Assembly (NCBI GenBank): GCA_023920165.1
Contig: CP089275.1
Coordinates: forward strand, 1,860,001 to 1,924,000
DNA: 64,000 nt
Direction: 5' to 3'
Source: Curvularia clavata
Lineage: Eukaryota
Shown here: positions 30,294 to 33,804 of the stretch, in pieces
Layout of the letters: each line of letters begins with the position of its first letter
Position numbering within the stretch: the first letter of the stretch is position 1
The notes under the pieces: model-generated
The model's database searches: none
Told to the model about the DNA's origin: nothing
The model's input: only the letters and a program-made list of their open reading frames with translations
Program-made: the position numbers and the translations under genes

Positions 30294-31283
30294 TTAGAAG
30301 ACGAGAGCAGCACCCTTGGTCTTCTTGTCACCACCAAGCTCGAAGTGCTTGCATCGCTTGAGGGCAAGCTATTTGCTGGTTAGTAGCTGCATAGAGAAGA
30401 GCGCAGAGGGTAAGCATACCTGTGCCTTGGTCTTGCACGCAGTGCACTCTAGACGGAGAACGACCTTCTTGGTGGTCTTCGCCCTCTGTTTGTTGTTAGT
30501 ACCGATTCTGCATACTCGCATGGAGATGATCGTACCTTGTGGAAGACGGGCTTGGTCTGACCTCCGTAACCGGATTGCTTGCGGTCATAACGACGCTTAC
30601 CCTGAGCGAACAGAGAGGCCTTTCCTGCCTTGTATTCTACATCGTCTCAGTATGCGAAGGTAACGTATGGGGCGTGGATCACTAACGGGTGACCTTGTGC
30701 TGGGTGTGCTTCTTGCAGTCCTTGCCCTTGCAGTAGGTTCGGCGGGTCTTGGGAACGTTGACCTGAGACATCAAAGTCAGCATTCGTTTTATGACTTTGT
30801 CTATTCATTCTCTTTTTAAGCGACAGCCGAGCAGGCGACACGAGTAGGCGACCGGACTAGGCAAGATAGAAGGATCGGAGGCTTGCAGCGGAGGCGACTA
30901 ATGCGAGCGGTCGGGCAAGCAAGAAGGTGGGCAGTATCGGAACTGCTCATACGATAGCAGCTTGGTCGGTCTTTTCCATGTCCACTCTGCGATAGAGTGC
31001 GACGCAAATGCCATTTGCAGTCCGCGCTGATATACAGCGTCTCTCTAACCCACACAGCCTGCCTCCGGTTCGTTCCAATGGCTTCCTTCGGTGCGACATC
31101 TCTCTCTCCTCTCCTCAATCGCCCATGTATTCCAAATGCCGAGGCCAGCCCCAATGTTCGATTAATTTGTTATGTCGTGCGGTCCGCAAGTTCGCCATCG
31201 TCGTCGAAGATTCGTCATGTCGTCCACTCGTGTCGTGACTGTCGTATTGCGCAACCTCAAACAGCAAATATTTCACTCACCAT
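30294..31283 (-). CDS. RPL42: 60S ribosomal protein eL42 (L44/L42/L36a); 5 exons, first coding exon is ATG only
   Basis: caaaATG|GTGAGT at 31283-31281; intron 30763-31280; then [31 protein letters not shown]...[15 protein letters not shown]...LECTACK...[21 protein letters not shown]. Confidence 0.97.
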
Positions 31284-31641
31284 TTTGACGGATTTTGCTC
31301 TGTGGTTAGTATGAGCGAAAAGGTTGGCGGTGGTGCTGAGGTGTTGATGGTCGCTGAACCGATATTACTAGCGTTGTGTGGGCTTTCGGCTAGGTTAGTA
31401 AGCCGACAGCATGCGCCACACACCAGCCACACCTACAAGCCCACAGTATCACCATCAATTCATACTGAACGCGACTACAATGTAATACAAGGATAGTGTT
31501 CAAGTGGAGAAAAGAAATCTGTCATTGTGGTATCATGCGCAGCAAATCAAACGAAAATGCCCACCCGTCCATCTTCTCTTAACGGTCTAATTGCCCTGTG
31601 AAGCCATTCTGAAGAACAAAAGAAAGCCACCAGCAAAATCA

Positions 31642-33804
31642 CTAAAAGACAGGACGCCCCTCATCCCACTTCTTGACATCTTTTATATCCTGCGAAGCAG
31701 ATGGGGGGCTGCTACCCATACCAAGACTAAAGCGGCCACTCTCGCGAGTACCACTACTTCGACCATCCTCGAGCCGCCTCACGGGGCCGACCCACTCCCA
31801 CATACGAGCAACATCACCATTGGCTGTTGTTCGTACACCTGCACGGACATTGCTGTTTTTTTCGACTTTCGCTTGGACCCTTTTCCATAGTTTCTGTCGT
31901 CGAGATGCATTGAACTCAGTGCGTAAGACGTCATCACGAAGCTGAGTCATGCTAATGCCCTTCTCGACGCCGGGCGCTTGATAGCTAAGTGCAGCTTGAT
32001 CTTGCAGTCTGTCGTAGGCGTCACTTGCTAGCTGCTTTGCGCGAACCTCCATTGCTCGATTGCTGGTGTACGAGTACTTGCCGTAAGAGCCAGTAGCGAT
32101 CAACAGGAAGAACATCACAATCTGGAGAAGATGTCGTTCAAAAGATTGTCGGAGGGATCGTCGGACGCTACAGGAGAGGGAGAGCTTGGCGAGAGATGTT
32201 GATGCAAGGCGTCGTTTGCCAGTTGTTCTGTATCCAAGGAAGAGGAACTGATTAGTACAATTCCAAGTCAGAAATAATGCACATAAGGTTGGGACCTGAA
32301 AGAAGCGAACTTACTCATCTGTTGTTTGCACAATCTCCTCACGCATCAGAAGCTCCGGAAAGGCCCTGTCAAACAAATCACTGAACTCCTGGTCCGTCAA
32401 GCTCTTGCTTTTTTGGGCAGCCATTTGCTCCTTGAGATCAACTTCGCTGACCTCAGGGCTTTCTACAGGTCGTCCTTCCGCGTCGGGCTCGCCGCATTCG
32501 TACTGAGCCTTACGTTGTCGAAGGACCTCCACAGCCCGATTGGCAATGCCGTTCACCTTGCGCGTCTTTTCGCTATCTGGCTCGCAAGTTGGCGGGAGGG
32601 GTATCAGGCCTCCCAGTGATAGTGGGTGGTCTTTCTTAATAAAATCGGGGTCGCATCGGATATTCAGGCCTCGATAGCACTGCGCATGCGGCGGGCAAGG
32701 CTCACACTGTGGGAGGATCTGGTCCGCCCAACTTGGTATTTCCACACCAGCAAGCGCAGTGGCCTCTCGTCCAATGCCACAGAAGCCAACATTAATCTTC
32801 TCTTGTCGCCAAACACCAGCAAAGGCTGCTGTAGCAGTAAGAAGAATAGTCCCGGCCATGGCTTTGATAGTACCGGTAGCCTTCGCTTTCTTTTGCCTTC
32901 GCCTCGGTGGCAGAACGTCCACTTCACCAGTCTTTGCACGCTCTTGTACTAGCGCGAGCTGTTCTTCGGGCGTAAATTCTTCCCCGGCATCCGCAGCTTC
33001 TTCTTCTTCCTCTTTCTCCTCCTCCTCGTGCTTTACGCGGGGATCAACGACATCAAATGTTCCACGTGTGGGGACCACAATTCCTTCGTCTAATTGTTCG
33101 GACTTGGGTTGGACGGTTCTTCGACGGTGCACGTCGCTCTTGCGTCTCTCGTGATGACTGTATCCTGTAGTCCGCCTTCGACGATCGCGCGAGATGGTGT
33201 CCGGTACCGCGGGGGAGCTCCCACTCTGGAAAGGGTTTTCTTGCGTAAAAGGACTTGCTGCATCATTTCGATGCCATGCTTCCGGTTCCGGTGACGGCTC
33301 TTTCGGGGCCGGGGCCGGGGCCGGAGCAGGCGTAGCACTCTTGCGCGTACGTCTGGCCGCAGGTCTCTCATCAACCTCAGCGTCGAGAGCCCTGCTATGC
33401 TTAGCAGGCACAGCGCGAGAAGGTGTTTTGGCACGTGGTGCAGGTGTATCTGCTTCCTCTGTTGTTGCACGCCCTGTCCTCCGTAATGTTCGTCGCGCGG
33501 TTGCAGGCGTGGGAGCCGCGGGTGTTTCGTCTTCAACATCGTCCGTATCCACGGTGCTGGCTGAGCTTGAAGGTACATCCACGATGCCCCGCGTTGATCG
33601 CTTCGTGCGAGCATACGCTCTCTGGACCTGCGATTTCTGGGGCAGAACGATGTCGTTGAAGAGGCCTACGAGAACCGGCTTCTTCGCTGAGGATGGATAT
33701 GTGACACCGTGGCGAAGTAGGATGCTGCGTAGTTCCGGTACCGTGATCTTGTTCGCATCCACGCCATCTTCGTAATACCAATACTCCCCGCGCGCATCCG
33801 CCAT
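31642..33804 (-). CDS. SRC1: Inner nuclear membrane protein Src1/Heh1/Man1 (HeH/LEM plus MSC domain); 2 exons
   Basis: N-terminal HeH (ITVPELRSILLRHGVTYPSSAKKPVLVGLF), TM1, lumenal QCEPCPPHAQC...PTCEPD, intron 32228-32314, TM2, and a winged-helix end (QLRDDVL...LWKRVQAKVEKNSNVRA...WEWVG). Confidence 0.93.

Follow-up and report, generated by a model that had tools for sequence, protein, structure and literature searches.

The gene for ribosomal protein eL42 (RPL42/L44) of Curvularia clavata carries a long first intron in which a segment following the donor is complementary to a segment preceding the branch point, and comparison with related introns indicates that the resulting long-range helix is real and that its pairing is under selection in the Pleosporales. 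This helix is probably a splicing zipper stem similar to that of yeast RPS17B, i.e., one that would form in vivo and speed up splicing, and a role as splicing aid appears the best reading of the geometry of the intron, of the correlation with intron length and of the yeast precedent. An earlier, sequence-only reading had proposed a functional splicing or autoregulatory RNA domain; covariation upholds function in the sense of selection on pairing and the splicing part is the one favoured here, while the autoregulatory part finds neither an alternative fold nor a motif common to lineages, and little unspliced contig. All positions given below refer to the window, i.e., the whole 64,000-nt stretch of contig CP089275.1 that was analysed.

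The eL42 Gene and Its First Intron

The eL42 gene comprises five exons on the minus strand and encodes a protein of 106 aa. The coding part of exon 1 is the ATG only (31281..31283), preceded by a 5′ UTR reaching at least about 31315, with RNA contigs ending at 31308-31315; then follow intron 1 (30763..31280, 518 nt, GUGAGU...CAG), exon 2 (30687..30762), exon 3 (30536..30636), exon 4 (30420..30485) and exon 5, stop codon included (30294..30368). These limits are given by contigs of runs X7 and X11, each from a different study (presumed RNA), in which all four introns, including three of 50-51 nt, are joined across, namely at joint 31279/30760 with 518 nt skipped for intron 1, and in which no alternative eL42 joint was found. 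The branch-point motif UGCUGAC (30776..30782, minus strand, branch A at 30777), recognised in the sequence and aligned in 11/11 Pleosporales introns, lies at a donor-to-branch distance of 503 nt. Over this branch point, an 8-bp hairpin is predicted (30772-30799, minus strand, probability 0.89-0.99), within the loop of which both RNA runs exhibit a one-base insertion; since it is absent from the consensus fold, it was not counted as conserved. A stwintron or nested intron was considered and rejected, with no internal branch point plus AG in 11/11 introns, no donor-like word in 10/11 and no alternative joint.

In the same genome, nine other ribosomal-protein genes contain 23 introns of 49 to about 190 nt, e.g., an S17 intron of about 186 nt. 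Intron 1 of eL42 measures 274-669 nt in 62/62 distinct complete introns (window counted), and the remaining eL42 introns in the recovered loci are mostly of about 50-110 nt. As such, the length belongs to eL42 intron 1 and not to the ribosomal-protein genes of this genome at large. In one relative (L026, 716-1378) all other introns of the gene were lost, but intron 1, with its helix, is retained at 663 nt, where the presence of intron 1 was selected by the search pattern but its length was not. A pattern search for ATG-adjacent introns elsewhere gave 14 matches vs 12 for the control, mostly chance. In the protein, HKR replaces HKK (window 30483-30485, minus strand) in all Pleosporales loci and in L015, adjoining a clade-specific intron position.

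Beside eL42 lies a Src1 gene (31642-33804, minus strand). Of 120 listed Src1 homologs, 10 are annotated as Src1-eL42 (PF00935) fusions (P0003, P0004, P0016, P0028, P0029, P0030, P0052, P0085, P0107, and P0109), 8 of which run directly into exon 2 and skip the ATG exon. Since eL42 has its own ATG exon in the RNA contigs, these fusions are probably gene-model errors, a recurrent error probably caused by the 3-nt exon together with the long intron.

The Helix in the Window

The conserved core helix is formed by a 5′ arm (31219..31235) and a 3′ arm (30836..30852), both on the minus strand and supported by pairing probability, consensus fold and covariation, with a mean identity to 10 relatives of 73% and 64%, respectively. 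Over its 17 positions, 16 pairs are predicted with a pairing probability of 0.88-0.97, including one G-U (on the side of 31226, G56-U435 in intron numbering), alongside one A-C mismatch. Further out, an 8-bp helix on the minus strand pairs 31237..31244 with 30821..30828 and is separated from the core by 1 and 7 unpaired bases; its probability is 0.52-0.57, and in relatives it is out of register, several of them having further outward pairs of different sequence. An imperfect 13-nt tandem repeat makes up the 3′ arm (30826-30852) and also harbours the 3′ strand of the outer helix, and this repeat probably gave rise to the outer helix in this species. Between the two arms, an interior of 366 nt (30853..31218, minus strand) is looped out. 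What the sequence-only reading had described thus largely stands, i.e., a 518-nt intron, now given by RNA-contig joints of two studies, complementary arms pairing as written, a 17-position helix with one G-U and one mismatch, a loop of about 370 nt and a branch point near 30781 (UGCUGAC at 30782-30776); its outer helix does pair as proposed, but only at the probability given above and without being kept in register.

Taken from the window alone, the helix is moderately unusual, which is suggestive only. The folding energy of the whole intron does not go beyond that of shuffles (MFE z +0.53, 66/100 shuffles equally good), an outcome which the sequence-only reading had listed as counting against its proposal, though this measure has little sensitivity for a single helix within 518 nt. 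The end-to-end duplex was reached by 90/2000 and 16/2000 shuffles, the best local duplex was matched in 1/200 and the helix score of the window intron in 2/60; among random 518-nt stretches of the window, 4/50 reach the helix energy of the intron and 0/50 reach a z of -3. Because these window-only tests are borderline, the case for the helix is carried by its conservation in relatives.

Such borderline values are also what could be expected of a neutral leftover, either an old MITE or introner-like insertion of which the terminal inverted repeats persist, or a chance complementarity between CGA-rich and UCG-rich stretches. The anatomy is indeed MITE-like, with 17-bp inverted ends around a 370-nt core, and the composition is skewed along the intron. 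Multiple genome copies, as would befit a MITE or introner-like element, were looked for and not found, the intron element being single-copy in the genome, while the arm pattern has 2 exact matches, both here, and 8 in total vs 24 for a reversed control. With compensatory changes occurring in different families and a loop saturated with change, covariation largely refutes a neutral leftover, which is thereby very improbable.

Covariation in the Pleosporales

Relatives were retrieved with a pattern combining the acceptor and exon 2. The 107 metagenome loci obtained, together with the window, provide 62 distinct complete introns; the rest are loci that repeated another or did not reach far enough upstream, and partial loci contributed 3′ arms only. 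The alignment holds the 11 introns resembling that of the window, chosen after the sequences had been seen, and leaves out L053, which nearly duplicates L035, as well as L045, from the Pleosporales but without the helix. For Src1 beside eL42, the best named matches (87-91%) belong to Pleosporaceae, and Src1 synteny assigns the window, L020, and L028 to this family, L010 and L037 to Phaeosphaeriaceae, L006 and L018 to Didymellaceae, L060 to a Cucurbitariaceae-like and L038 to a Massarineae-like group, and L053/L035 to unplaced Pleosporales; for L026, which had no Src1 match, the placement relies on the coding tree and on the resemblance of its intron.

Applied to a sequence-only alignment of the 11 whole introns, RNAalifold returned the core helix and nothing else, with 16 pairs, 6 of which show double changes; the alignment of orthologs suggested beforehand thereby gives the helix as the sole consensus structure. 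Over 18 pairs, pairing is kept in 88% of 192 cells, compared with 21-42% in slid registers, and both-sided changes are found at 7/18 pairs (16 cells). Shuffles matched the cells and the score in 0/500 cases and the changed pairs in 2/500, the count of further pair types being not above shuffles (273/500). Since this shuffling ignores kinship, coupled changes were recounted on a family tree, a family-level tree based on Src1 being used because the eL42 coding tree was poorly resolved. On this tree, 11 same-branch coupled changes were counted vs 3.3 ± 1.7 expected (3/20000 permutations, 10 rows), one of the 11 falling in the window's unpaired C-C column, which is not a pair; L035 was omitted from this count, its 3′ arm having been aligned in a second register. 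On any tree, at least 8 double changes are required. The own 3′ end of an intron pairs better than that of every other clade member in only 4/11 introns.

Covariation testifies to selection on pairing and leaves its purpose unspecified, and could also be expected of some other RNA or DNA role, such as first-intron enhancement of transcription, the supply of a stable intronic RNA, or nuclease targeting of the lariat or of unspliced pre-mRNA, with the CGAYGACSA motif described below as a factor site. Along the same line, G-U is not above A-C, either overall (40 vs 46) or in the core (6 vs 7), so that strand asymmetry gives no sign of pairing at the RNA level. RNase III substrates need an AGNN tetraloop, and the eL42 structure is no tetraloop-capped hairpin but has a loop of 366 nt. 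Hairpins in the yeast RPL18A and RPS22B introns do trigger RNase III decay (PMC4937481). As to an intron-encoded snoRNA, which had been suggested as worth a search, the Rfam search returned 0 snoRNA matches for the window (E 10) and 0 for 20/107 loci (E 1), and no Rfam match of any kind arose in the window or these 20 relatives; the candidate was rejected, there being no CUGA box in 6/11 interiors, none near the 3′ arm, and only 29% identity in the interior, with H/ACA boxes assessed by counts. Finally, the position of the helix tracks the splice signals. A role other than in splicing is on these grounds quite doubtful.

A Probable Zipper Stem Shortening the Path to the Branch Point

As a zipper stem, the helix would act on distance. 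In the pre-mRNA, an arm located about 45 nt past the donor would pair with an arm ending about 58 nt ahead of the branch point, and this pairing would loop out 366 nt and reduce the 503-nt donor-to-branch path to about 80-100 unpaired nt, i.e., the size of the ordinary introns of the genome. Intron definition is the way these fungi recognise introns, and over a path of about 80-100 nt the spliceosome could bring the donor together with the branch point on the far side of the intron. In favour of a zipper are the intron as supported by RNA contigs, the upkeep of the helix by compensatory change, its position, the trend with length and the removal of false branch points. In budding yeast, zippers have been delimited by criteria including at least 6 bp, a total linker of 42-85 nt and in vivo DMS support (Rangan 2025, PMC12350175). 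The eL42 helix has 16 core pairs and agrees with the spacing used there (36 or 45 nt on the donor side, 43 or 58 nt on the branch-point side); its total linker is 103 nt for the conserved core alone, above the yeast 42-85 nt, and 79 nt if the outer helix is included, for which the probability is about 0.55 and the 8 unpaired nt in between exceed the 5 allowed in one stem.

Across lineages, a helix was called if its end-to-end score beat at least 58/60 shuffles, a similar cut being passed by 2/50 random stretches. Such a helix is found in 26/52 representatives, namely 3/21 introns of 270-345 nt, 8/11 of 346-450 nt and 15/20 of 451-700 nt, i.e., in 23/31 of the longer introns, with a Spearman coefficient of -0.41, uncorrected for kinship, by which the length trend is confounded. 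Beyond the Pleosporales, the arms are of unrelated sequence at the same place in the intron; the linker has a median of 79.5 nt and is at most 110 nt in 24/26 and 42-85 nt in 12/26. The branch word CTRAY occurs 3 times in the looped-out interior of the window vs 23.9 in shuffles, and 13 times in the interiors of the 52 introns vs 74 in shuffles and 35 on the opposite strand; since the opposite strand is below shuffles too, this depletion is partly general and partly strand-specific. No significant helix exists in the other 26/52, including L045 (578 nt, Pleosporales), L003 (466 nt), and L015 (485 nt), so that the helix is not required everywhere. With neither helix nor CGAYGACSA motif in its 578-nt intron, L045 (745-1322) is a natural counter-example within the Pleosporales.

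Arms clustered into 9 groups at an arbitrary cut-off, with 4 outside introns drawn into the Pleosporales group. In separate arm families (L047/L048/L051/L056/L057, L031/L052/L055, and L041/L067/L068), changes of compensatory appearance were noted, as were helices with as many as 59 pairs. The 3′ arm of L031 contains, perhaps by chance, 10 nt in a row from the Pleosporales 5′ arm (L037), as though the duplex had been flipped.

The CGAYGACSA Motif and the Question of Feedback

Zipper function does not explain the persistent length of the intron nor the motif CGAYGACSA (31198..31206, minus strand), situated within a tract rich in CGA, close to the 5′ arm on its loop side. The motif occurs at intron position 75-86 in 10/11 Pleosporales introns and in 0/41 other representatives. 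The idea of a single-stranded tract was rejected, as its unpaired probability (0.23-0.52) is similar to the intron average; in part, the tract may lengthen the helix on the inner side through pairs with a UCG-rich tract. CGAYGA together with a loosely kept CCGA before the 3′ arm was judged by eye as a kink-turn or box C/D-like arrangement, which was discarded for want of a consistent flanking stem. One CGAYGACSA, within chance, is present in the RPL21 intron of L136, a contig on which RPL21 and RPS9 are arranged head to head with about 580 nt between them and RPS27 is located about 4 kb away.

A positioned motif next to a helix raises feedback, where excess eL42 or another factor would bind the helix or the CGAYGACSA tract and block splicing, the zipper being the switched part as in RPL7B. 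The host is a ribosomal-protein gene, RPL7B provides a precedent, the arms are kept in sequence too (73%, 64%), the motif of the 10/11 introns is lost along with the helix in L045, and the intron is long in 62/62 next to three introns of about 50 nt. An alternative pairing of the 3′ arm, with the CGA tract, is also feasible (-8 to -29 kcal/mol), though weaker than the main helix in 11/11 introns. Blocking either arm left no consensus fold, with energies of -0.46 and 0 vs -14.7 kcal/mol, a test in which a small element could be missed given the poor alignment of the interior (29% identity over intron positions 110-400). No motif common to all lineages was found in the intron 1 set, though eL42 itself is almost invariant. 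Retention of intron 1 would bring a stop at codon 9, and a contig with unspliced intron 1 is present in both RNA runs; its depth is low relative to the spliced joint (20.6 vs 614.8 and 83 vs 4685, i.e., about 2-3%, contig depth being a poor measure) and, in X11, not above that of intron 2. With no alternative joint in the RNA contigs either, feedback is considered unlikely.

SR-type proteins prefer GAC repeats. It can be speculated that helix and CGAYGACSA form a Pleosporales-specific module in which an SR-type protein or eL42 opens or locks the zipper, making a gate, controlled through splicing, for the dose of eL42, while other lineages rebuilt zippers independently; this joint proposal is rather unlikely, and if true it would give filamentous ascomycetes their first switch of this sort, in an anciently long intron.

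Relation to Known Intron Structures and Significance

Zipper stems are known from long introns of Saccharomyces cerevisiae, namely RPS17B/RP51B, RPS6B, and APE2 (Rogic 2008, PMC2536676; Rangan 2025, PMC12350175). As in these zippers, the eL42 structure is one helix running from the region after the donor to that before the branch in a ribosomal-protein intron of 400-500 nt, with a helix sequence that turns over between lineages. Unlike in S. cerevisiae, it resides in filamentous ascomycetes whose other introns are of 50-190 nt, covaries across Pleosporales families, has its conserved core farther from the splice signals, with a linker of about 100 nt, and is a predicted structure. Zippers of yeast show 20-30% conservation with covariation hard to find, and that of RPL28 did not promote splicing (Rangan 2025, PMC12350175). 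Intron 1 of RPL7B, described as an autoregulatory switch (Granas 2025, PMC12311795), likewise combines a zipper stem in a first ribosomal-protein intron with a conserved neighbouring element, but the eL42 intron displays no conserved mutually exclusive structure; for this comparison, CUGAC is a common branch motif in eL42 introns (21/52).

Other RNA motifs of fungal ribosomal-protein genes include rps0, rps2, rps20, rpl7, rpl7-l8-s3, and rpl30 (PMC5640933), and RPL12 and RPS13 in a table of 17 structures (PMC8216456), with a further list in PMC4937481. The motifs of PMC5640933 and PMC8216456 are also covarying structures in ribosomal-protein transcripts but, unlike the eL42 helix, compact hairpins with conserved loops. 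RPL42/L44 is absent from the fungal ribosomal-protein motifs in the accessible parts of these three sources, has no match in 12/18 supplementary files of PMC12350175 and does not figure in the main text of PMC7732827, the supplements of which may list it. In a search thin on subscription journals, no published report on eL42 intron structure was found, the literature on “zipper stem” concerned S. cerevisiae or cited such work, and there is no earlier report of a zipper-like stem in filamentous fungi in the literature searched.

As such, the eL42 helix would offer a zipper that covaries across fungal families, where the zippers of budding yeast are hard to prove in this way. In a group with short introns, it amounts to a clean natural experiment on the handling of a 500-nt intron by a spliceosome used to short ones. 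The helix may also represent a new RNA family not included in Rfam, and it makes a genome-wide look for comparable helices in the long introns of filamentous fungi worthwhile.
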